In this document: in pieces, positions 4,953 through 49,269 of the stretch
Layout: each line of letters opens with the position of its first letter
Position numbering within the stretch: the stretch's first letter is position 1
Source of the DNA: a virus
Reading direction: 5' to 3' (one strand)
IMG/VR virus record: IMGVR_UViG_3300032282_005588
Location: 16,083-80,082 of that record
Length of the DNA: 64,000 nt
The notes under the pieces: model-generated
Told to the model about the DNA's origin: nothing
Database searches by the model: none
Seen by the model: the letters and a program-made list of their open reading frames with translations, nothing else
Made by a program: the position numbers and the translations under genes

Positions 4953-6860
4953 ATGGGAATAACATTAAGAAGTGTAAAAGGCACAGCCTTAACCTTTACT
5001 GAATTAGATGATAATTTTTTATATCTATCTCAGTCATATACTACTACTAGTTCATTTAATTCATTTAGTAGTTCATATAACTCAGGGAGTTTTACTGGTT
5101 CATTTACTGGTAATCTTTCAGGAACATCAAGTTGGGCTAGTAATGCTTCTACTGCTTCATACGTTTTAAACGCAGTTTCAAGTTCATTCGCAACAACAGC
5201 TTCATTTTCACAAACAGCATCCTACGTTTTAAATGCAATATCAAGTTCATTTTCTACAACTGCATCATTTTCACAAACAGCTTCATTTGTTAATAATGCT
5301 CAAACAGCATCCTACGTTTTAAATGCAGTTTCAAGCTCATTTTCTACAACTGCATCATTTTCACAAACGGCTTCATTTGTTAAAAATGCACAAACAGCTT
5401 CATATGTTTTAAATGCAATATCAAGTTCATTTGCAACAACAGCTTCATTTTCACAAACGGCTTCATTTGTTAAAAATGCACAAACAGCATCATATTTCCC
5501 TAAGGTTATAGTAGATAACTCAACCCAGAATACATTAATAGCATCTTCTCCCAATAATAATGGTCTTTATAATACATCTTTGGGTGATGGTACTCTATTT
5601 TCAAATTCATCTGGGAATAGTAATACAGCACTAGGTGGTGGTGTAATGTATAATAATATATCAGGAGATAATAATACAGCCATAGGAGCAGATGCATTAT
5701 CTAATAATACCACTGGTACTGATAATATAGCTGCTGGGATACAATCATTATATTCAAACACTTTAGGAAGTTATAATATAGCTGCTGGGATACAATCATT
5801 ATATTCAAACACTTTAGGTAATAATAATACATCTATAGGATATCAAGCAACTCAAGGAAATACAACAGGAAACTATAATGTAGCTATGGGGGATCAAGCA
5901 TTATATTCTAATCAAACAGGTAGTTCAAATGTAGCTATAGGTACTAATGCTTTAAGAGCAAATGTACAAAACTTAAATGTAGCTATAGGTACTAATGCTT
6001 TATTCCAAAAAACTACAGGAAATGGAAACACAGCTATTGGTCATTACTCTCTATACCTGTTAAATACAGGTTCAAATAACGTAGCATTAGGATACCAAGC
6101 AGGATATAATGAGACTGGAAATAATAAATTACATATATCTAATACTAATGCATATTCATTAATATATGGTGAATTTAATAACAGATATCTCCAAGTTCAA
6201 GGAACATTAGCAGTTTCTTCCTCAATGTCTGTAACAGGTAGTTTAAATGTTCAATCAGGAATTACTAGTAGTTTATTTGGAACATCAAGTTGGGCTAGTA
6301 ATGCTTCTACTGCTTCATATGTTTTAAATGCAGTTTCAAGTTCATTTGCAACTAGTGCATCATTTGCTCAAACAGCATCTTTTGTTGCATCTGCATCTTT
6401 ATCTGCAACTTCATCATATTTAAATAAATTAAATCAAAATATAATTAATACTGGTTCTATATTCTCAGGAAATGGTTCAGGAACTGAAATTAGAGTTTGG
6501 GGTGAGGAAGGAAGTATAGAGATATGTAGGGATAGTTCTAAAGGTGGAAATGCATATATTGACTTTAAAAATAACATATCAGATGATTATGATGTTAGAA
6601 TAGGCCAAGTAGGCAACACAGATGCATTCGGAGTAGCATGTGGATATCCCAATGAGTATAATTTTCAGATAACAAATACAAGTACTAATATAACTGGTAG
6701 TTTAAATGTAACTGGTAGTTTAAATATTAATAATATACTAACACTAACACGAAGAACCACCACCCCAACTCCTATAGAAGGAATGATAATAGCTTCAGGA
6801 TCAGCAGGAGCTAGTGTTCTATACTACTACAATGGAACAACTTGGAATGCATTATTTTAA
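4953..6860 (+). CDS. Tail-fibre/adhesin-like Ser/Thr-rich repeat protein
   Basis: N-terminal LR..KG..LT..ELD.NF, TASYVLNAVSSSF repeats, and N(T/V)A(I/L)G..AL repeats (YadA-head-like). Confidence 0.65.
   Translation: MGITLRSVKGTALTFTELDDNFLYLSQSYTTTSSFNSFSSSYNSGSFTGSFTGNLSGTSSWASNASTASYVLNAVSSSFATTASFSQTASYVLNAISSSFSTTASFSQTASFVNNAQTASYVLNAVSSSFSTTASFSQTASFVKNAQTASYVLNAISSSFATTASFSQTASFVKNAQTASYFPKVIVDNSTQNTLIASSPNNNGLYNTSLGDGTLFSNSSGNSNTALGGGVMYNNISGDNNTAIGADALSNNTTGTDNIAAGIQSLYSNTLGSYNIAAGIQSLYSNTLGNNNTSIGYQATQGNTTGNYNVAMGDQALYSNQTGSSNVAIGTNALRANVQNLNVAIGTNALFQKTTGNGNTAIGHYSLYLLNTGSNNVALGYQAGYNETGNNKLHISNTNAYSLIYGEFNNRYLQVQGTLAVSSSMSVTGSLNVQSGITSSLFGTSSWASNASTASYVLNAVSSSFATSASFAQTASFVASASLSATSSYLNKLNQNIINTGSIFSGNGSGTEIRVWGEEGSIEICRDSSKGGNAYIDFKNNISDDYDVRIGQVGNTDAFGVACGYPNEYNFQITNTSTNITGSLNVTGSLNINNILTLTRRTTTPTPIEGMIIASGSAGASVLYYYNGTTWNALF
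5121..5493 (+). repeat. Tandem coding repeats TASYVLNA(V/I)SSSF(A/S)TTASFSQ, with a further copy near 6280-6350
   Basis: Near-identical DNA units are visible in the sequence. Confidence 0.85.
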
Positions 6861-37796: not shown

Positions 37797-37804
37797 GGTT
37801 GCCG

Positions 37805-37861
37805 CTAACTATTATATATACGCAACTACGTTTAATCACCAATAAAATCAACGGTTTTAAT
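37805..37861. other. attI-like site: last CTAAC core, not followed by a hairpin, abutting the integrase start
   Basis: CTAAC-tattatatatacgcaac..., which reads GTTAG on the minus strand. Confidence 0.55.
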
Positions 37862-38659
37862 ATGAAAATTCTTAAAATATTTGAGGAAAAGTTAAGATAT
37901 AAAAACTACTCAGATAAGAGTATTAGGTTATATATTTCATATTTGAGGCTCTTTTTAGAAAAAGAAAAGATAAAAGACCCATATCAAGTTAGAACCCAAC
38001 AAATAGTCTCATTTCTTGAAAACTACCCATTCACCAGTATAAGTCAACAAAATCAATATATTGGTACTCTTAAATTATTTGCTAAATATATATTAAGTAA
38101 AAAAGACATCCATTTAAGTAAAATGGAGAGACCCAAATCGGAAAAGAAACTACCCAGAGTTATTGATGGGGAATTTATCAAAGAAAAATTATCTAAAATT
38201 GAAAATATAAAGCACAAAGCAATACTTACCTTAACTTACTCTGTTGGATTAAGAGTGTCTGAAGTAGTTAATTTAAAGATTGAAGATATTGATTCCAAAA
38301 GAATGTTGATTCATATCAAAAACGCAAAGGGTAGGAAAGATAGATTGGTTCCGTTATCACCAAATGTTCTCAATCTATTAAGAGAATATTTTAAAGAATT
38401 CAAACCGACTCAATATCTATTTAATGGTCAAAACTCAAATCAATACTCAATAGGTAGTTGTCAACAAATTTATAAAAAATATATTGATAAAAACAGTTCA
38501 ATACATACTTTAAGGCATTCATCTTTTACAGGTTTACTAGAAAACGGAACTGATTTAAGAATAATACAAAAAATAGCGGGACATTCCTCATCCAAAACAA
38601 CAGAAATTTATACTCATGTCTCCAACCAAATGCTTTCAAAAATTAATTTGGTTATTTAG
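37862..38659 (+). CDS. Tyrosine recombinase (XerD/IntI-like with N-terminal SAM-like domain)
   Basis: Catalytic residues intact: GLRVSE (R), KGRKDR (K), HTLRH (HxxR), GHSS (H), TEIYTH (Y). Confidence 0.93.
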   Translation: MKILKIFEEKLRYKNYSDKSIRLYISYLRLFLEKEKIKDPYQVRTQQIVSFLENYPFTSISQQNQYIGTLKLFAKYILSKKDIHLSKMERPKSEKKLPRVIDGEFIKEKLSKIENIKHKAILTLTYSVGLRVSEVVNLKIEDIDSKRMLIHIKNAKGRKDRLVPLSPNVLNLLREYFKEFKPTQYLFNGQNSNQYSIGSCQQIYKKYIDKNSSIHTLRHSSFTGLLENGTDLRIIQKIAGHSSSKTTEIYTHVSNQMLSKINLVI

Positions 38660-41326: not shown

Positions 41327-44311
41327 ATGGTAAAAATAATAATGGAATTTGATAGCTCAGATGAAGCCCAAGAAGCAATTGATGGTAGTAAATGGAAACA
41401 AGCATTTTGGGAATTAAATAATGAGCTTAGAAACACTACCAAATATGATGTTAGTATTATCAATAATAACTTACAAGCAACAGATATTGAACAAGAAATA
41501 TGTTCTAAAGTTAGAGATATGATGTTTGAAATCCTTAATAGATGGAATTTAAAAATAGATTAAATTAATTGTGAAAACACGAATTCATGTTAATCAACAC
41601 CATATACGTTCTAATAAAACAAAAGGCACTACACTCCCAGTAATTACTATTAAACAAGGTAAAAATAATACTTATTGTAATGAAGTAGAAATATTAGGAC
41701 CTAGTAAAATTATTTATGGTGGTAGTGGTTGTGATGCAAAACCACTTTTAAGTTGTGGAGCTAGAGTTGTAATCGAAACGGAAAGTGCAATCAAAATTAT
41801 AAAATAGTTTTTATACTTGGATTTGATAAAAAATTAACATATATTAATATTATAATAAATTAATAATAAAAATGAAAAATAAATTAAAGAATGGACGATT
41901 AGTATTTATGATGTGGAGTATATTCCATATTATCACCCTTTTATATTTTGGTTGGAATTTAGTTCCTCAACCATTTGTTACCATTGATGCTATATTATTT
42001 GGGGGATTTATTGGATTTTATTTTGTACAACCTTTAAGTGAAATTTATGAACAGTGGGTTAATAATAAACTAAATAAATAATGATTAATAATATATTATT
42101 ACAAATTTTTGTTAAATCCTTTTTTATTACTATAACTCTCACTAGTGTAGTGTATGGGTTTATTGCTTATTTAAATAAAACTATAATTTACAATAAATGG
42201 CCACAACATGCTCAACATAGTATGTTAGTTACTGGGGTTATGATATTATTGATGATTATTTTTATTGGGTTTGTTGACTTTAAATATAATAAATAAATAT
42301 AATGGATATAAATGTAGATTTAGATGATATTTTATGGGGAATGAGTGATTGGGAAAAACAAGAAATGTGTGATAATTTATGTGATGATGGTTATACCCCA
42401 TCAACTCAATCAATCGATGATATTAAATCATTTTTCTTTGAGGTTGAAGGGAGAATTACTCATAATGAAAGAGAATTATTAGATATATTAATTAGAATTT
42501 GGTATAATAAACATTTTATAAATAATAAAGACATTGAGCAACTCAAAATATATGCTAAAAAAGGATTATAATAATCCAATTAAAATGACTTTTAATCAGT
42601 GGTTAAATCATTATCAAAACCTAAATGACCATCAATATACTAAATTTAAACCATATGGAAGTTCAATTGATTATTTTTTTCATCATAAAAAAGATGGTTA
42701 TAACACATATGGTGTAATAATTTAAATAATCAATCAATGAAAGAAATAATAATCAAATATTGTAAGGGAGAACCATTACAAATAACTGAAGCAGTATCCA
42801 TAATTGAAGAATACATGCATTATGTTAAAAAATATAATCGTGAATTAATAATTCAATTGTTGAATCCAATGAACCCAATGGGAAGATCAATGTTAGATAT
42901 AGCACTACAGACCTCCATGATTTATCTTCAATGGAAATATTCAATAAATAAATTATATAGTAAAGACGGGCAATTACTAATGGTATTTTAACGTGGAAGA
43001 TTTAAAAAATTTGAGAAATTTTTGTGATAAACAAATTAAAAAACATCCCCAATTAAAAGTGGATATTATAACTTGTTATAATCTTTGTTTAGATAATATT
43101 GAAGAAGGAGAATCTGTTGTTAATGAAATTGAATTATGTTTAACTAATATAAACTATATATTGAACATGTATTATTTAAAATAACATTAAATATAAACCG
43201 TTAATTATCAATATTATATAAAAAGCTACAATCAATTATTTGATTTTGTAGCTTTCTTTATGTATATTGACATTATAATAAAAATAAAAAATGACTAAAA
43301 AAGAATATCATAAACAAATCAATAAAAGATTTTATGAATATATTAATCAACATTTTCCAAATTATGAGCTTGATTTCAATGAAGGTTATGGTTATGTATA
43401 TTTAATGTGTGAAAATAAAAATGATTTAATTGAATATCACCAATCAAGACATGATTTATGTATACATAATTATTCTACAGATAAAGCAAAACAGGACATG
43501 CTACAAATGGAAAGATATATCAATGAGAATATTATTCCATATGTTAACATGGTTACTGAAGTTTAGATTGTTAATTACTAACGCTCTATAAAAACTGTAG
43601 ATGAATATTTGGATTTACAAAATTTATTACATACATTAACATCATAATAAAAATTAAAAAAATGAAAAAATCAGAAAAATTAATCTACAGTTTAGAAATA
43701 CTTAAAGAGGTATTACAAAACCAACTAAAAGAAGGTAGAGAATATGGTCAAAAAACAAATGCGGATTGTGAATCCGGTTGGTATATTGGTACTATCAAAA
43801 CAGCAATTGAAGAAATAGATCGTATTACTAAAATCACTAAATAATCTATGAAAACATCAAATTTAAAATCAGGATTTTCCCTTTATGGAAACAAAGGTAA
43901 TGTTTGGGAAAATAATGCTCACATTTATCAATCCGGTAAAGGAAATTTATGTGGTACTCCAGCATTAGCATCTAATTGGGCTAAGGAAATGAAGATGGAA
44001 GAAGCAAATTGTGAGAAATGTAATAAATTATATAATACTCTAGAATATAAAGTATAATAAACAATAAAATGCTTGTAGAGTGTATAGATATATCAAACAG
44101 ACCTGAAGACATACCAACATCAATGTGGTTAAAGAAAAAGGTTTACACTGTGGTGAGTAGAACATTTCATCCAATTCATAATTATTACTCACTTCAACTA
44201 GAAGAAGTACATCCACCCCCACCTTATATTGGATATAAGGAATCAAGATTTAAACCTATAGAAGATATTAGTATAATAGAATTAATAGAAGAAAAAATAG
44301 AAACAATATGA
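41327..44311 (+). other. Run of small hypothetical genes: 41327-41563, 41571-41807, 41872-42081, 42081-42296, 42302-42571, 42585-42725, 42737-42991, 42993-43184, 43291-43566, 43662-43844, 43848-44057, 44069-44311
   Basis: Tightly packed co-directional ORFs with A-rich leaders, several behind early promoters. Confidence 0.6.
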
Positions 44312-44616
44312 AGAATAAACTAGATAAACAATATACAGACCTGCTCCAAGATATCTTAGATAATGGAGTAAAAAAACAAACCAGAAATGGTGAAGTGTTA
44401 TCAATATTCGGTAGACAAATTCGTCACAACATGAAAGATGGTTTCCCACTTCTTACAACTAAGAAGATGGCTTGGAAATCAATTGTAACTGAGTTACTCT
44501 GGTTTCTCCGTGGTTCAACTCGAGGTGATGAGTTAGTAAGGCAAGGGTGTAATATTTGGGTAGGGGATATGTATGCTAATTATTTAAAAGAGTATGAAAA
44601 ACATAAAGAAAATTAA
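44308..44616 (+). CDS. thyA: Thymidylate synthase, N-terminal fragment
   Basis: QY.DLL..IL.NG, R, FG.Q.R, GFPLLTTKK, ELLWFLRG, NIW. Ends in its own stop. Confidence 0.9.
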   Translation: MKNKLDKQYTDLLQDILDNGVKKQTRNGEVLSIFGRQIRHNMKDGFPLLTTKKMAWKSIVTELLWFLRGSTRGDELVRQGCNIWVGDMYANYLKEYEKHKEN

Positions 44617-44752
44617 AAATAAATGGGTTTTTTAAGTAAAAGTACAATATTTATAAATGTAGAGTTGCGGCTACATGTAAGATATTTAATTAACTAAATG
44701 CTAATGGTGAGTAGAGTACCGCAATCTCGAAAGCCTTAGTATTTTTTATTTT

Positions 44753-45607
44753 ATGAATTACCTAAAAATTTACGAACAATTAATTGATAAAGCTAAGAGA
44801 GAAGATAGAGATTACATAAGTAATAAAATCTACGAAAGACACCACATACTTCCTAAATGTATGGGAGGGGATGGGAAAGTTAATCAATGGAGAACTCACC
44901 CCAATATAGTAATTTTAACTCCTCGAGAACATTATTTAGCTCACACTCTATTATGTGAGATATATCCTGAAAATTCTAAATTAAAGTTTGCATTATGGGC
45001 TATGTCTAATCAATTAGGAGAAAACAGAAAATATAAAATATGTTCTAGACAGTATGAAAGAGTGAGAGAAAACTATGTAAAACTAGTAAGAGGAGTACCT
45101 AAGACTGATGAGCATAAAATAAAGTTAAGTGAGGCATTAAAAGGAAGGGAAAGAGAGGAATTTACTGAATTACACAAAATTAATATCAGTAAAAATATTA
45201 AAGGAATTAAAAAATCAAAAGAACATAGAAAAAATCTCTCTAAATCCAAAAGCATTCCTGTATTTCAATATACTTTAGACGGTGTGTTTTTAAAACAATG
45301 GGAATCTGCCAAAAAAGCAGGAAATATATTAAATATAGACCCTGGAGATATTACAGGTTGTAGAAGAGGAGTAAAAAAGAGTGCTGGGGGATTTCTTTGG
45401 AAAGAAAATAAGATAGAAGTTAAACCCTACAAACATAATAACTCATCTAATATATTGCAGTATACTCTCGAAGGAGAGTTTATACAAGAATTTCAAAGTA
45501 TATCTAAAGCTTCCAAAATCTTAAAACTCAATCCCTCAGGAATATCTAATTGTGCTAATGGAAGATCTAAATATTCTGGTGGGTTTATTTGGAGATATAA
45601 AAAATAG
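44753..45607 (+). CDS. Free-standing HNH homing endonuclease with NUMOD3/NUMOD1 DNA-binding repeats
   Basis: YERHHILPKCMGG, LTPREHYLAH.LL, HK.K.S repeats, two QYTL.G.F...(W/F).S...A...L...GGF.W units. Confidence 0.88.
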   Translation: MNYLKIYEQLIDKAKREDRDYISNKIYERHHILPKCMGGDGKVNQWRTHPNIVILTPREHYLAHTLLCEIYPENSKLKFALWAMSNQLGENRKYKICSRQYERVRENYVKLVRGVPKTDEHKIKLSEALKGREREEFTELHKINISKNIKGIKKSKEHRKNLSKSKSIPVFQYTLDGVFLKQWESAKKAGNILNIDPGDITGCRRGVKKSAGGFLWKENKIEVKPYKHNNSSNILQYTLEGEFIQEFQSISKASKILKLNPSGISNCANGRSKYSGGFIWRYKK

Positions 45608-45633
45608 TTATTATTTTTAATAAATTAAAAGTT

Positions 45634-46509
45634 ATGAAATTTAAAAAAGAAGATTTACACCCAGATGGGAGACCATTCACCAAAGAAGAATTTATCAACA
45701 AAATAAAAACCGATGGTGAGTTTGCCAAGAGGTGGGGTGAATTAGGACCTGTGTATGGTAAGCAATGGAGACAATGGAGTACTCATAAAACTGTAGTAGT
45801 AGGGCATAATGGAAATCATAATGAATTTGGGACAATTGTTATAGACCAAATCCAAAACCTAATCAACGACCTTAAAACAAACCCAGACTCAAGACGACTA
45901 ATGGTTTCAGCTTGGAATGTAGGCGAATTAGACCAATGCGTGCTTCCACCTTGTCATTATGGATTTCAAGTTTATACAAGAGAGTTGAGTTTAAGTGAAA
46001 GAACTTTTTGGATTATGTCCAACAGACCTGAACAATTAGGGAGTCAAAATTATTTAGACGGAGATAGGCAAGGTATGAAATCAACTGATTATTATGGAGT
46101 ACCAACCAGAGCAATCTCTTTAATGTATAATACCCGAAGTCAAGATGTTCCATTAGGTACACCATTTAATATATCATCATATGCTCTATTGTTAGAAATT
46201 ATTGCGAAGATGGTTAATATGGTTCCTGAAGAGTTGATTACTAATATGGGTGATTGTCATATCTATCTAAACCAAATTGATGGGATTAAGGAACAATTAA
46301 CAAGAGAACCATATCCACTACCTAAATTGAATATTAATACAGAATGGTGGCCAACAGAAGGTGGTTCATGTGGTGAAGGTCCTTTAGATGTTCAAGCAGT
46401 ACTAGATGGTTTTTCTAGTGATTCTTTTGCAAGTTGTTTAATTGAAGAAGATATTCAGTTATATAATTATAAAAGTCATCCGGCAATCAAAATGCCTTTA
46501 TCAAATTAA
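45634..46509 (+). CDS. thyA: Thymidylate synthase, C-terminal catalytic fragment
   Basis: LGPVYGKQWR, DQI, PDSRRLMVSAWN, LPPCH, RSQDVPLG.PFN, GDCHIY.N. Confidence 0.92.
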   Translation: MKFKKEDLHPDGRPFTKEEFINKIKTDGEFAKRWGELGPVYGKQWRQWSTHKTVVVGHNGNHNEFGTIVIDQIQNLINDLKTNPDSRRLMVSAWNVGELDQCVLPPCHYGFQVYTRELSLSERTFWIMSNRPEQLGSQNYLDGDRQGMKSTDYYGVPTRAISLMYNTRSQDVPLGTPFNISSYALLLEIIAKMVNMVPEELITNMGDCHIYLNQIDGIKEQLTREPYPLPKLNINTEWWPTEGGSCGEGPLDVQAVLDGFSSDSFASCLIEEDIQLYNYKSHPAIKMPLSN

Positions 46510-46521
46510 TAAATAAAAATT

Positions 46522-47085
46522 ATGAAATCAAATTTAACAGAAAAATTATCGTCTATTTGCGGGAGTGCAGATAAGACTTATGGTTGTAATGATATTGAAT
46601 CAATAACACAACTAACAGAAGAGCAACGTATTCAAGTAGAAGCAGAATTAATTAACCATTTTGGGTTTGATAAAATTATATGGATGCAACTTCCCTCAGG
46701 TCTTACAGAAGACAAAAAAACAACAATAGTTGCAGAAACTAGAAAAATATCAGATTCAGACGATCCAACTCACAAACATAAAGTAGGATATATTTACACT
46801 TTAAACTTTATTCCAAAAATGTATGAATCGGGAGAAATGTATAAACCAGTAAAAGATGGTTGTGTGTTTGCTCCTATCATCTTCGATCCAGTAACTTTTA
46901 CGCCTACACAAAGTATTACATTAACTTGGTCACCTGAATTTCCTCAAGACATTAATGCACCAGAAAGAACTCTTGAAGACGAAAAGCAAATGATTCGTGA
47001 TATGTTAGAAAAGGTATTGGACAATCCTGAAGAGTATAGACCGGTTGGATATACAGGATGTTTACTAAGGTATGTGGCAGTCTAA
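46522..47085 (+). CDS. Hypothetical protein (thyA-array cargo 1)
   Basis: 187 aa between repeat copies 1 and 2. Confidence 0.65.
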   Translation: MKSNLTEKLSSICGSADKTYGCNDIESITQLTEEQRIQVEAELINHFGFDKIIWMQLPSGLTEDKKTTIVAETRKISDSDDPTHKHKVGYIYTLNFIPKMYESGEMYKPVKDGCVFAPIIFDPVTFTPTQSITLTWSPEFPQDINAPERTLEDEKQMIRDMLEKVLDNPEEYRPVGYTGCLLRYVAV

Positions 47086-47136
47086 TCACACCCAACAATT
47101 AAAGCGCCTTTAAGTAACTGATGCATATTTATTAAC

Positions 47137-47685
47137 ATGATAAAATTAATTGATTTGTTACGTGAAGTGAAAGCTGCAATCACTGATGATATGGTTATTG
47201 TACTAGACAAAGGGCCTACTTTGATATTATATAATAATAAAGAAGATGGCGTTTTAGGTTCGATAAATGTTTATAATAATGAGGTAACAGGTGTAGCTGC
47301 TGAAAAAGGTTTTGGGCCTATCATGTATGAATTAGGTATGGCTATGGTGTATCCAAAGCCATTACAATCAGATCGACGAGGTAATACTACAGAAGCAGCT
47401 GCAAATATTTGGAATAGGTTTATAGACGGTATCAACCCAAAAATAAAAGTGGAGAAAGTTAAACCAAGTGATAAGGATTATATGTCAGTATGGCCTGAGA
47501 CTGGAGAGGCTATTGACCCTTACTATTTAGATGGTTTTATTAACTATAAGTTTTACAATCCTGATAAATCAGTCCTCGATAAGTTAATTAAGAAAGGAGA
47601 TATTATACCAAAAGACAAACAAAAGGATATAATTAAGAGAGCTAATGATTTTTATCAAAGAAAAGTTAATCATCCCTACAACTAA
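47137..47685 (+). CDS. Putative GNAT-like protein with an MIKLIDLLRE N-terminus
   Basis: VAAEKGFGPIMYE and L.SD.....T.AA..IW. Late motif upstream. Confidence 0.5.
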   Translation: MIKLIDLLREVKAAITDDMVIVLDKGPTLILYNNKEDGVLGSINVYNNEVTGVAAEKGFGPIMYELGMAMVYPKPLQSDRRGNTTEAAANIWNRFIDGINPKIKVEKVKPSDKDYMSVWPETGEAIDPYYLDGFINYKFYNPDKSVLDKLIKKGDIIPKDKQKDIIKRANDFYQRKVNHPYN

Positions 47686-47735
47686 TCACACCCAGCAATT
47701 AAAGCACCTTTATCAAATTAACCATATTTATTAAC

Positions 47736-48167
47736 ATGATAAGATTAATTGATTTATTGAGTGAATCTCAGAATATACCTGAAGTATTATATCATTTTAC
47801 ATTACCTAAATATTTTGTAAATATGATAAAAACAAATACCATTAAGGCAGATCCTAAATTTAAACAAATATCATTCACTTCAGATCCTAATTTATGGGCT
47901 TTTAGAGAATTTAATGATGAGGATCAAGAAGTAGGAGTAAGATTAACTTTTAATAGTAAAGATTTACCTCCATTAACTCCATTTAAATATTCAGGAGCGC
48001 CAGGTGAAGAATATGGATATGAAGAAGAATATACTACAAATGTTGGAGATTTAAGACCATCAAATATTATGAATTTGATTAAAGATGTAACAGTAAATAA
48101 TTATTGGAAAGAATATCTCCAAAATAATCTTCCCAAAGACATATTTAATAAAATTAAATTTATATAA
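47736..48167 (+). CDS. Putative ADP-ribosyltransferase-like protein with an MIRLIDLLSE N-terminus
   Basis: LYHFT...ISFT...EEE arrangement. Confidence 0.4.
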   Translation: MIRLIDLLSESQNIPEVLYHFTLPKYFVNMIKTNTIKADPKFKQISFTSDPNLWAFREFNDEDQEVGVRLTFNSKDLPPLTPFKYSGAPGEEYGYEEEYTTNVGDLRPSNIMNLIKDVTVNNYWKEYLQNNLPKDIFNKIKFI

Positions 48168-48186
48168 AATAACAAAAAAATAAATT

Positions 48187-48396
48187 ATGGAAAATTTCGA
48201 AAAATTAAATTTAAAAGTTAGAATTCAAATTCTTGATGCTAATGACCAAATTCTTTTACAATCTACAATTAATCAAAATGATGTAAATGATTTAAGAGTT
48301 TATCAAGGTGTTAGTCTTGTAGATGAAACTTACCTGATGTTGTTAGAAACATTAAAACAAAAAATAGATAGTGAATCAATCACACCCAACAATTAA
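48187..48396 (+). CDS. Hypothetical protein
   Basis: 69 aa. The 3' end overlaps thyA repeat copy 4. Confidence 0.55.
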   Translation: MENFEKLNLKVRIQILDANDQILLQSTINQNDVNDLRVYQGVSLVDETYLMLLETLKQKIDSESITPNN

Positions 48397-48441
48397 AGCA
48401 CCTTTATCAAATTAACCATATTTATTATAAAAAAATAAACT

Positions 48442-48945
48442 ATGAAAAAAACAGAATTACAACAAATTATTAGAGAAGAGATTAGTAAAATAATAGGAGA
48501 GATAGGCGAAGCAACATCAAATCCATATTCATATAAATTAACATATGAAGATGGAAACAATGAAGACGAAGGTTATTATACATATGAATTCGAGACCAAT
48601 TCAGGAACAAAATATGAGGTGAGTGTAAAACTTAGTACAACGTATAGAGAAAAAAGTGGTGGCAAGAATACTAAGGAGATTGTAGTTGCATTTAAAACCA
48701 AGAATGGTGAATATGAGGATGTAACTCAGGAAAATGATAGTTATAGGATAATGGCTACTGTTATACAAATTGTTAAGGATTATTTAAAAGAAACACCTGA
48801 TGTTGATATAATAGAGTTTTCACCTGCAAAATCTAAAGATAATGATTCTCGTAGAGAAAATATGTATAAAGCTTATATATCAAAACAGTTACCTGGTTCT
48901 AAAGTTAGTGTAAATGGTTCTTGGTATTTTGTTGAATTAAAATAA
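48442..48945 (+). CDS. Hypothetical protein with an MKKTELQQIIREE N-terminus
   Basis: Late motif upstream. RIMATV..IV..Y...F.P....R..Y. Confidence 0.6.
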   Translation: MKKTELQQIIREEISKIIGEIGEATSNPYSYKLTYEDGNNEDEGYYTYEFETNSGTKYEVSVKLSTTYREKSGGKNTKEIVVAFKTKNGEYEDVTQENDSYRIMATVIQIVKDYLKETPDVDIIEFSPAKSKDNDSRRENMYKAYISKQLPGSKVSVNGSWYFVELK

Positions 48946-49269
48946 TGTAATGGTATGGTAATGGTATATGTGGAAACTCAAGTATAGGATGGAAACATAG
49001 TGGGGGTGGTGATATAACGGGTGAATATTTGAGGTATGGTGGGGGTTAGGGGAGTTCGCGGATCCCACACATTTTCGGCGCTATCCCGCATCTTCTCGTC
49101 GATAAAGTATATACTTTCATAAACCATTTATAACCACCTATCAAATAATATAATTAAATATCAAAAAAATAATATAAATAAACGTGTTTAAACGCATACT
49201 AATGCAAAACCGATAAAAACATTAACTATGGAAAAACAGTTGTTTAAATCGCATAATTTAATACAACAA

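Follow-up and report, generated by a model that had tools for sequence, protein, structure and literature searches.

How did the 3' end of thyA, a conserved metabolic gene, come to be repeated among the unrelated small genes that follow it in a lytic T4-like phage genome? The stretch of DNA analysed here (the window) comprises 64,000 nucleotides of a metagenome-assembled IMG/VR contig of 80 kb that is ~50% complete, and the order of cassettes across repeats is given as assembled. A preliminary description reported that the last 12 thyA codons recur three times (at 47086, 47686 and 48380), each copy being followed by a CATATTTATT box (at 47124, 47723 and 48417) and then a new gene, and all of these elements are present as described (Table 1). 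The recurrence of thyA-end relics in many related phages points to a recombination hotspot downstream of thyA. We consider it likely that this region is a hyperplastic hotspot gaining modules of a thyA end plus gene by recombination, without an integrase. The hotspot is common to a large group of freshwater and brackish T4-like Bacteroidota phages, relatives of Flavobacterium phage immuto.

thyA, its tail copies and the cargo genes

The thyA gene is split in the window by a homing endonuclease gene, whose product has an HNH-type HH..C motif at its N-terminus and is similar to the HNH endonuclease of locus L027. The C-terminal piece is an 'M-type' allele according to its allele-type blocks (LMYNTRSQDVPLGT, MGDCHIYLNQIDG and IKMPLSN), and for its end, T1, the nearest foreign attached tail (the end of a real thyA gene in another phage) has 6 differences in 39 positions. 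A codon-degenerate pattern finds the four tail copies in the 64 kb, against an expected count of 0.01, and one match with two mismatches elsewhere. The ORFs upstream of T2 and T3 stop at TAA codons (47083-85 and 47683-85) in frame and immediately 5' of the relic, as was noted earlier for two cargo genes, and ORF 48187-48396 enters T4 in the +1 frame and ends at the internal AAT-TAA of the relic. The T2 and T3 repeats do not end at the box but take in the 10 initial codons of the gene that follows each, with 47124-47166 and 47723-47765 being 91% identical. The resident thyA ORF is complete, and the relics are ends that formerly belonged to other thyA alleles.

Table 1. Features of the thyA region, with coordinates in the window.
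Feature	Coordinates	Strand	Basis
thyA N-terminal piece, 102 aa	44308..44616	+	PF00303 positions 1-82, E 6e-26
HNH/NUMOD homing endonuclease gene splitting thyA	44753..45607	+	NUMOD domains PF22083, PF07453
thyA C-terminal piece, 291 aa	45634..46509	+	PF00303 positions 81-265, E 3e-57
T1, resident thyA end, SHPAIKMPLSN*	46474-46509	+	codon-degenerate pattern
Cargo g5, 187 aa, no known family	46522..47085	+	without Pfam or PHROG match
T2, relic thyA end, SHPTIKAPLSN*, ends AGT AAC TGA	47086-47121	+	pattern search
CATATTTATT box after T2	47124..47133	+	
Cargo g18, 182 aa, leader MIKLIDLLRE	47137..47685	+	
T3, relic thyA end, SHPAIKAPLSN*	47686-47721	+	comparison with attached thyA ends
CATATTTATT box after T3	47723..47732	+	
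Cargo g19, 143 aa, leader MIRLIDLLSE	47736..48167	+	
Cargo g4, 69 aa, last 6 codons read from T4 in +1 frame	48187..48396	+	
T4, relic thyA end, SHPTIKAPLSN*, CAA before it as in real thyA	48380-48415	+	
CATATTTATT box after T4	48417..48426	+	
Cargo g0, 167 aa, leader MKKTELQQIIREE	48442..48945	+	weak DUF6934 match

No cargo gene could be placed in a PHROGs or Pfam family (the match of g0 to PF22028, E 2e-5, is below the cut-off), and a search of the ESM Atlas yielded no hint of function for either g5 or g18. Homologues of g5 are found in 25 IMG/VR loci with varied contexts, several of them with a thyA tail before or after the gene; those of g4 (in L117, L128, L184 and L058) have a tail next downstream, and no relative of g18 was found in IMG/VR. 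What g19 has in common with g18 and with proteins of L143, L146 and L067 is the leader only, and the body of g0 is 38% identical (E 2e-30) to a thyA-adjacent protein of L067 that has the other leader. Several cargo proteins have leaders resembling capsid-targeting sequences, and relatives encode a gp21-type prohead protease. The box is present in 11/11 leader genes and 10/11 endonuclease genes behind a tail, compared with 16/140 other genes, and follows the tail at a constant spacing of 1-3 nt. It is co-oriented with the genes in complete relatives (28 versus 2 in G001, 12 versus 1 in immuto). Enrichment of a SATATTTATW box in the window itself was rejected (12 found, 7.5 expected). Of the 'late promoter' proposed previously, the co-oriented and over-represented box stands, and nothing beyond that is supported.

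Origin of the relics and variation among relatives

The relics are of foreign origin. Of the 39 positions compared, T2 has 15 that differ from T1 and 4 that differ from its nearest foreign attached tails; T3 differs at 10 from T1 and at a single one from the thyA ends attached in immuto 2-6A (L063/L001), L070 and L105; and T4, with 11 differences from T1, matches the attached ends of L016, L065 and L100 at all 39. The comparison of tails with thyA alleles that was suggested at the outset therefore places T2-T4 away from T1 and near foreign alleles. The 45 distinct relics show 128 codon differences, of which 66 are synonymous when read in the thyA frame, against a random expectation of 24% (p = 3e-11) and a share of 13-17% in the other frames. 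This coding-frame signature, together with the nearness to foreign attached ends, bears out the claim that the copies evolved as real thyA ends. A nucleotide-level constraint on the canonical tail in all thyA alleles was considered and rejected, as synonymous codon identity is 0.50 in the tail and 0.54 in the body; differences between attached tails grow in proportion to the divergence of the thyA body.

All four tail-to-gene junctions of the window are known as genuine thyA-to-gene junctions in other phages. The g5 junction has its counterpart in L210, those with MI(K/R)L leaders in L143, L146 and L067, and the one with an MKKxEL leader in L023, L070 and L031. The earlier proposal that an incoming unit restores the thyA end while the old end is displaced agrees with these data, the relics being former ends of other alleles and the resident ORF being complete.

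We surveyed 155 unique related thyA loci from IMG/VR and GenBank, scanning ~555 kb per category. The tail core occurs 33 times within 6 kb downstream on the thyA strand, and is absent from the other strand and from upstream of thyA across all 155 loci. Twenty-five loci have a downstream core, and about 20% of loci show the pattern, including the cultured Flavobacterium phages immuto 2-6A and 3-5A; L052, L184, L027 and L022 have at least two downstream relics each. Cargo families appear in changing order from contig to contig. Between immuto 2-6A and 3-5A, whose flanks are 95% and 99% identical, the segment from the thyA stop to the next shared gene is replaced (741 versus 282 nt), with a partial relic in each. 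The arrangement varies among relatives, sister isolates and lake populations. The preliminary description placed the hotspot in an essential gene; the hotspot is upheld, but thyA is not indispensable in all relatives, as it appears truncated in L058 and L117.

Relic boundaries range from -24 to beyond -45 among relatives, with junctions clustering at -36 to -39. In three unrelated cargo families the cargo TAA abuts TCACACCC with zero spacer, and right junctions are more precise than expected from random illegitimate joins. The relics are all of one type, the A-type (IKAPLSN, ATTAAAGC), and 31 of 55 attached ends in an unbiased sample are another type. The precise right junctions and the single relic type together hint at some site preference or selection. 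Partial relics also persist, with the 5' half only in L204 and the 3' half only in L002 and L063.

A 1609-nt contig of lake run X2 joins 48168 straight to 48442 and hence lacks g4 and T4. The absence of this internal unit from a sister population, and the presence of cargo-plus-tail units in other contexts, indicate that cassettes also move within arrays. The foreign origin of the modules agrees with the integration first proposed; the data do not establish strictly serial accretion at a single point. A search for sister genomes gave no match to the window-specific tail in IMG/VR or JGI metagenome contigs. In a low-depth X2 contig, which may represent a relative's thyA and is therefore given no weight here, position 46469 of thyA is joined to T3.

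Proposed recombination at the thyA end

In the proposed mechanism a module copied in from a co-infecting phage would bring the terminal 25-45 nt of a thyA allele together with a promoter-like ATATTTAT box and a small orphan gene or two. The left crossover would fall in the homologous thyA body, so that the functional thyA end is now the incoming one; the right end would be joined at or beside the start of the resident end, which would then stay as an untranslated relic before the older cargo. Cargo between two tails could later enter, leave or change place through the phage's ordinary homologous recombination acting on the tail copies. This would be served by a phage-encoded RecA/UvsX-like protein, with no site-specific recombinase taking part; G000, immuto and G001 each have a RecA-like gene. 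The basis of the hotspot reading is comparative, with recombination events seen through sequences rather than directly, and it is from such comparisons that we infer the crossover mechanism, the trigger of breaks and the order of acquisition.

The slot after thyA is also used by homing endonuclease genes. In 13 of 116 loci a free-standing I-TevI-like GIY-YIG or HNH endonuclease gene lies 44-63 nt after thyA, with a leader containing a hairpin and a promoter-like box. The endonuclease ORF ends in frame in a relic in L082, in L167 and, as a remnant of the ORF, in L058, and in L021 the spacer found ahead of the endonuclease gene persists as a scar. Relics are found in 12 of 26 loci with a non-A-type attached end and in 11 of 90 with an A-type end (p = 4e-4). 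A non-canonical end is present in 12 of the 13 endonuclease-linked alleles, an association confounded by allele type; since the endonuclease-bearing alleles share that type, it is not a set of independent events, nor does the Fisher test on these alleles (p = 3e-8) count such events. A tree of the C-terminal part suggested that the endonuclease-linked alleles form a true clade. This was rejected, as they are alike only in three non-contiguous short blocks within the last 105 codons; the rest of thyA is without clade signal, and in the N-terminal part these alleles do not cluster. Also rejected was the interpretation of L123 as a mosaic of an L202-like thyA and an endonuclease-linked 3' end, the shared stretch (92-97%) being a generally hyper-conserved core block with unrelated flanks. 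No GIY-YIG/NUMOD3 gene was found in the complete relic-bearing relatives immuto 2-6A, 3-5A and G001, and the window has no endonuclease gene downstream of thyA, its HNH gene lying inside thyA instead. Given that such genes repeatedly colonise the exact slot, and that one splits thyA in the window phage, double-strand breaks made by free-standing I-TevI-like GIY-YIG/HNH endonucleases are our tentative candidate for the trigger of many of the events.

Other origins of the array can be weighed against these observations. The copies are direct repeats in one orientation, ~600-700 nt apart, as would be expected if the resident end had been duplicated in tandem by slippage or unequal crossing-over within one lineage and had then diverged. 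This is hardly credible: relics closer to foreign ends (0-4 of 39 differences) than to the resident end (10-15) are not local duplicates, the relics are A-type and the resident end M-type, and the genes between the copies are unrelated to each other. The window does encode a tyrosine recombinase (37799-38659, PF00589), 8.7 kb upstream and beside an integron-like array whose adjoining cassettes are bounded by inverted arms of CATAACGGTTGC type, and the thyA tail could be its attachment site. Arms of this type are missing from 46.4-49.0 kb, however, the array and cassette borders have no inverted repeats, and the tail regions fold no better than shuffles except for an AT hairpin after T4. The varying relic boundaries are unlike a fixed crossover point. 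Moreover, no match to PF00589 or PF00239 (tyrosine or serine recombinase) was obtained in the three complete relic-bearing genomes (immuto 2-6A, immuto 3-5A and G001), the PF00589 profile search having found its positive control in G000. Site-specific insertion of the cassettes by this enzyme is thus close to refuted, and its involvement in any way is very unlikely. The preliminary description noted no adjacent integrase, and these complete relatives bear out that none is needed; its 'attB-like' site is not borne out, as relic starts vary without a fixed core and the data fit homologous or illegitimate recombination, possibly started by homing endonucleases. An assembly chimera, in which cassettes of several co-occurring phages were joined through shared 36-90-nt repeats, would account for the module order in a metagenome-assembled contig. 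The repeats are common to many co-occurring phages, Logan contigs break exactly at tails in four lake metagenomes, and depths are unequal (41-107x for the g18 contig, 10-17x for the backbone, 670-990x for the canonical tail bin). We regard this as improbable, given that the repeats are below normal read length, T2 has diagnostic differences of its own, run X1 contains 96% of the sampled words of the stretch, and tail-cargo-tail units occur in the cultured complete genomes and in many independent contigs, four of the surveyed loci having multiple relics.

Two further readings concern the role of the tails within the hotspot. It is unlikely, though compatible with the main explanation, that the relics are kept as functional DNA or RNA signals rather than as passive scars, for example as the upstream part of the ATATTTAT promoter, as a supply of stop codons for incoming ORFs or as an operator for I-TevI-like proteins. 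The constant spacing, distribution and co-orientation of the box favour such a role, as do the cargo ORFs that end at the relic start or its internal TAA, and, at its own late promoter, I-TevI binds an operator similar to its homing site (PMC2988022). Against it, elsewhere the box accompanies many genes that no tail precedes, partial relics missing one or the other half persist, relic variation tracks the thyA codon frame and not a nucleotide motif, and conservation at synonymous sites is no higher in attached tails than in other parts of thyA. A more specific, and doubtful, form of the endonuclease hypothesis is that the A-type thyA end is a shared target of trans-acting homing endonucleases that circulate among these phage communities, such that any orphan-gene cassette with a tail on both sides could 'home' into a genome that has been cut, without a nuclease of its own. 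If true, this would explain the restriction of relics to the A-type, the clustering of junctions at -36 to -39 and the recoding of endonuclease-linked alleles. It would amount to an endonuclease-powered cassette exchange in lytic phages that is functionally integron-like, and would provide the phage with late-expressed proteins that are targeted to the capsid and injected, for example anti-defence factors.

Under the hotspot reading, the relics are a datable trace of gene gain and of how lytic phages collect accessory genes; as each acquisition leaves a gene-end copy with the codon choices of its donor, donors and events can be traced across metagenomes. The hotspot is tied to a conserved gene that homing endonucleases have colonised repeatedly. 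Its orphan cargo, with interchangeable leaders resembling T4 capsid-targeting sequences, provides candidate injected anti-defence proteins, and immuto 2-6A and 3-5A on Flavobacterium sp. LMO8 offer a culturable test system.

Comparison with known systems

Integron-type arrays have attC-like folding inverted repeats at cassette borders, which the thyA-tail array lacks, and require a recombinase encoded with the array, whereas the relic-bearing immuto 2-6A, 3-5A and G001 are without one. Integrases inserting into gene 3' ends (at tRNA, tmRNA and protein-gene att sites, including those with tandem islands) restore the target end. As in that system, the incoming DNA at thyA supplies a new 3' end, the old end is pushed downstream, and serial events yield an array of repeated gene ends; the thyA hotspot differs in having no integrase in complete relatives and no fixed core site, and in its cassettes of 0.2-0.7 kb in a lytic T4-like phage genome. 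The hypervariable internal-protein (ipI) locus of T-even phages reportedly encodes proteins with shared capsid-targeting leaders. Similarly, the thyA cargo includes unrelated small proteins with a short N-terminal leader ending (L/I)-x-E and a common promoter-like box, the same body can have different leaders, and the relatives have the prohead protease noted above. Unlike ipI, the cassette locus is tied to the thyA end.

PeSL shuffling in T4-type phages (Arbiol et al. 2010, PMC2839356; Comeau et al. 2014, PMC4122927) shares several features with the thyA region. Both concern hyperplastic regions in which orphan genes lie between short conserved repeats, and in both the repeats mark the limits of the insertions, deletions or replacements that distinguish close relatives. 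The repeat also brings expression signals, and the phage's own homologous recombination is invoked in place of a dedicated recombinase. The PeSL repeat, however, is a sigma-70-type early promoter with a stem-loop terminator (PMC2839356, PMC4122927), whereas the thyA repeat joins coding sequence from the 3' end of a conserved metabolic gene to a ATATTTAT box and has no stem-loop. Its relics show the coding-frame signature of different donor alleles, and the array has a fixed polarity relative to a single anchoring gene, lying downstream of it and on its strand in every case. SegB drives segmental amplification in phage T6, with UvsX/UvsY being required (Chihara et al. 2026, PMC13096335). There too, endonuclease breaks and recombination between short repeats change accessory-gene copy number in a T4-like phage, as we infer for the breaks and events of the thyA array; the T6 system amplifies one segment in tandem, whereas the thyA units are unrelated genes from different donors.

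Intronless homing by the free-standing endonucleases SegF, SegG and MobE involves co-conversion (Edgell et al. 2010, PMC2988022), and nuclease genes are found at boundaries of exchange (Barth et al. 2023, PMC10448857). The thyA loci resemble these systems in that 13 of 116 have I-TevI-like GIY-YIG/HNH genes directly after a conserved nucleotide-metabolism gene, with linked alleles that are distinct in sequence beside the endonuclease gene, and in that the hotspot coincides with endonuclease insertion sites; the endonuclease leader, with its hairpin and promoter-like box, is like those of T4 endonuclease genes. They differ in that most thyA-tail cassettes have no endonuclease gene, the window having none downstream of thyA, and in that the displaced thyA end stays as a relic and builds up into an array, a feature for which we found no earlier description. 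The thyA-end relic array is best read as a new variant of PeSL-type shuffling and of intronless homing.

The thyA gene and the array behind it

The thyA gene of the window (44308-46509) consists of two ORFs, a 'gene in pieces' layout made by an HNH/NUMOD endonuclease gene. Downstream lie three additional copies (T2, T3 and T4) of its last 12 codons (the resident end, T1), referred to here as relics, and each is followed 1-2 nt later by CATATTTATT and then a new ORF, as reported in the preliminary description. All four tails are matched in the window by a codon-degenerate pattern with 0.01 matches expected. The TAA codons of the first two cargo genes directly abut T2 and T3 in frame, and T4 is entered in the +1 frame by g4, which ends at the internal TAA of the relic. 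The T2 and T3 repeats also take in the ten codons that open the following genes (MIKLIDLLRE and MIRLIDLLSE). The last cargo gene is followed by a short G-rich non-coding stretch, made up of tandem GGTAATGGTATGGTAATGGTAT and then GGGGGTGGTG .. GGGGGTTAGGGG, past which composition and gene strand switch. The record holding the window is an 80-kb IMG/VR contig with a completeness rating of about 50%.

Features of the window, with the differences over 39 nt that separate each relic from thyA ends still attached to their gene
Feature	Position	Strand	Differences from closest foreign attached ends	Differences from T1
Tyrosine recombinase gene	37799-38659			
thyA N-terminal piece	44308-44616	+		
HNH/NUMOD endonuclease gene splitting thyA	44753-45607			
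thyA C-terminal piece, ends SHPAIKMPLSN*	45634-46509	+		
thyA catalytic core (..DSRRLMVSAWN..LPPCHYGFQVY)	45840-46073			
T1, last 12 codons of thyA	46474-46509	+		
Cargo g5	46522-47085	+		
T2	start 47086	+	4	15
Cargo g18	47137-47685	+		
T3	start 47686	+	1	10
Cargo g19	47736-48167	+		
Cargo g4	48187-48396	+		
T4	start 48380	+	0	11
Cargo g0	48442-48945	+		
G-rich non-coding stretch	48946-49110			

Origin and variability of the relics

The closest cultured relatives of the window are the Flavobacterium phages vB_FspM_immuto, with about 73% nucleotide identity in thyA, and isolate immuto 2-6A has an attached thyA end that differs from T3 by a single change. The relics are all nearer to foreign thyA ends (0-4 of 39 nt) than to T1 (10-15), which argues against a simple local duplication of the resident end. 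The 45 distinct relic 33-mers gathered across all loci show 128 codon differences from the consensus, 66 of them synonymous when read in the thyA frame, compared with a random expectation of 24% (p = 3e-11) and with 13-17% in the other two frames, and the relics also show serine TCA/AGT switches and alternation of TAA, TAG and TGA. This synonymous excess indicates that the variation arose while the sequences were working thyA ends. Only relics of the A-type (IKAPLSN) occur; 31 of 55 attached ends in an unbiased sample are not A-type.

Related loci were fetched both by the tail pattern and by the ThyA protein, the latter carrying no bias towards the tail. A 24-nt tail core, allowing up to 4 mismatches, was sought around 155 unique thyA loci: the 6 kb downstream contain it 33 times on the thyA strand, and neither the opposite strand nor the upstream side contains any, each category covering about 555 kb. 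At least one relic is present in 25 of the 116 loci whose downstream sequence is 1.5 kb or longer, and two or more follow thyA in, for example, loci L052, L184, L027 and L022. Most relics, including those of the window, start at xAATCA, some retain NYQSHP, and some comprise just the last 24-27 nt. Up to the thyA stop, isolates immuto 2-6A and 3-5A share 95.2% identity, and from the next gene common to both onward 99.3%; the intervening segment has been replaced (741 vs 282 nt), with a partial relic behind the first cargo gene in each. The arrangement varies both among the relatives' loci and between the immuto isolates. Two other arrays (L058 2088-3901 and L117 4768-6065) accompany an apparently truncated thyA, of which about the first 115 and 170 codons remain, respectively; in L058, moreover, some ORFs are chimeric, the g5 N-terminus being followed by the C-terminal part of another cargo, and what is left of an endonuclease DNA-binding domain (54 aa) is joined to a tail.

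The window stretch is nearly whole in one metagenome run, probably its source, and is partly represented in about 20 lake-water metagenomes. Logan contigs of four runs, aligned to the stretch, end at the tails; contig depth for g18 is 41-107x compared with 10-17x for neighbouring cassettes, and the T4 bin reaches 670-990x because the tail is common to many phages. The segment encoding the thyA catalytic core, which adjoins the HNH insertion and is the kind of sequence typical for homing sites, has a summed contig depth of 6,500-14,400x against 10-40x for the backbone, and is ~93% identical in nucleotides among thyA alleles less than 70% identical in protein. In run X2, a contig of 1609 nt passes straight from 48168 to 48442, pointing to a sister population without g4 and T4, and thus to gain or loss of cassettes within the array, not just beside thyA. 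The proposal that foreign modules had integrated serially at one position is largely right as to origin and hotspot, but its strict serial order is not supported by these data.

Cargo genes, leaders and the box

The 134 cargo ORFs cluster into 94 families, several of which recur in an order that differs between contigs. Homologues of g5 are present in 25 further loci, after, before or far from thyA, a subset of them with a tail before and/or after, and the T1-to-g5 junction is also the attached end of L210. The arrangement of tail, box and a gene with an MI(K/R)LxDLL leader, as at T2 and T3, is attached to thyA in L143, L146 and L067, and that with an MKKxELxQIIxEE leader, as at T4, in L023, L070 and L031; the body of g0 is related to the thyA-adjacent protein of L067 (38% identity, E 2e-30). 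Since junctions of the window recur as real thyA junctions elsewhere, these data support the suggestion that a module comprises a thyA end, a box and a gene, derived from different phages. The ATATTTA box lies behind the tail for 11/11 leader-bearing genes, 10/11 endonuclease genes and 16/140 other genes. SATATTTATW is strongly co-oriented with genes in G001 (28 vs 2) and in immuto (12 vs 1), both complete relatives (controls 7/1 and 1/2), and is not enriched within the window.

No Pfam or PHROG family was matched by the cargo proteins of the window. The leaders MI(K/R)LxDLLxE and MKKxELxQIIxEE form the N-termini of unrelated proteins (window 47137-47166, 47736-47765 and 48442-48480; L067, L143, L146, L023 and L070), and a DUF6934-like body is found with either leader (g0 and the L067 protein). 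The leaders resemble capsid-targeting sequences that can be exchanged: they end in (L/I)-x-E, the gp21 cleavage motif of T4, and complete relatives encode a T4 gp21-type prohead protease (PF03420). Together with the pairing of one body with either leader, this suggests that the cargo may be capsid-targeted internal proteins.

Phages of other groups have an intergenic repeat of another kind, aacattaaacgtataata.., on either side of g5 (L224-L226, around 5001-5567) or, ahead of it, a tandem ATAAAAATA array together with a ATGAAATC start region in triplicate (L215/L223, upstream of 5001/608). These repeats are further signs of repeat-mediated shuffling.

Endonucleases, recombinases and the proposed route of accretion

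An attB-like hotspot with no adjacent integrase had been suggested for the array. The recombinase gene of the window adjoins an array with inverted arms, which are absent from the thyA array, and the tails have neither inverted repeats nor folding. No PF00589 or PF00239 gene is present in the complete genomes of immuto 2-6A, immuto 3-5A and G001 (169 kb), all of which bear relics; G000, which matches PF00589, provided a positive control for the profile search. Neither the site-specificity nor the role of the recombinase is borne out, and an integrase system was rejected.

Of 116 loci, 13 have a free-standing homing endonuclease gene 44-63 nt past the thyA stop, and these genes constitute one cargo family. 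Most have an I-TevI architecture (GIY-YIG, zinc finger, NUMOD3 and I-TevI DNA-binding domain) and one is an HNH enzyme; their leader contains a GATATTTATA box enclosed by a hairpin, as is known from T4 endonuclease genes (PMC2988022). In the spacer before the GIY-YIG genes (first 63 nt past the thyA stop; L135, L177, L123 and L192) inverted arms GGACTACC .. GGTAGTCC enclose a GATATTTATATTAAA box, which resembles the control of T4 endonuclease genes by a late promoter within a hairpin. In L082, L167 and the L058 remnant, the endonuclease ORF finishes in frame within a relic (..KYENYKSHPSIKAPLSN*), and L021 retains a scar of the endonuclease spacer joined to the final 13 nt of a relic. Endonuclease-like matches also occur within 3 kb before the thyA stop (L134, L151, L171, L088, L186, L080, L066, L091 and L200) which, with the endonuclease inside the window thyA, indicates colonisation of thyA at more than one position.

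Non-canonical thyA ends (IKM, IKF, IKL or IYF) are present in 12/13 endonuclease-linked loci and 15/103 others, and relics lie behind 7/13 of the endonuclease-linked loci and 16/103 others. Relics follow 12/26 non-A and 11/90 A alleles (p = 4e-4), or 6/20 and 2/26 in the unbiased subset (p = 0.06), although such allele counts are not independent events, since the endonuclease-linked alleles share three short blocks in the last 105 codons (LMYNARSQDVPLGT, MGDCHIYLNQIDG and IKM). They are alike only there, with no clade signal in thyA outside the blocks, which could reflect resistance or co-conversion, or a functional subtype. The window thyA belongs to this endonuclease-linked allele type. The complete relic-bearing relatives have no GIY-YIG or NUMOD3 gene, and a resident endonuclease is thus unnecessary for keeping relics.

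The array is explained most simply by recombinational accretion at a hyperplastic hotspot. In this reading, the 3' part of thyA would be replaced by a phage segment that brings in its own thyA end together with the gene(s) behind it, and the segment would be joined before the resident end, which would remain as a relic. The tail-flanked cargo would then be mobile through homologous recombination between tails; G000, immuto and G001 all carry RecA/UvsX-like genes. Homing endonucleases could plausibly act as a trigger by making double-strand breaks, for which marker exclusion and co-conversion (PMC2988022), the presence of nuclease genes where exchanged segments end (PMC10448857) and amplification dependent on SegB and UvsX/UvsY (PMC13096335) are precedents. 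The cargo-stop/relic junction is precise, with TAA abutting TCACACCC in three unrelated cargo families, and this, with the restriction of relics to the A-type, leaves room for the A-type end itself being a nuclease target. PeSL shuffling (PMC2839356) follows the same logic, although here the portable homology is a coding gene end, and the thyA-end array is a variation on PeSL-type modular shuffling, homing-endonuclease hotspots and gene 3'-end restoration.
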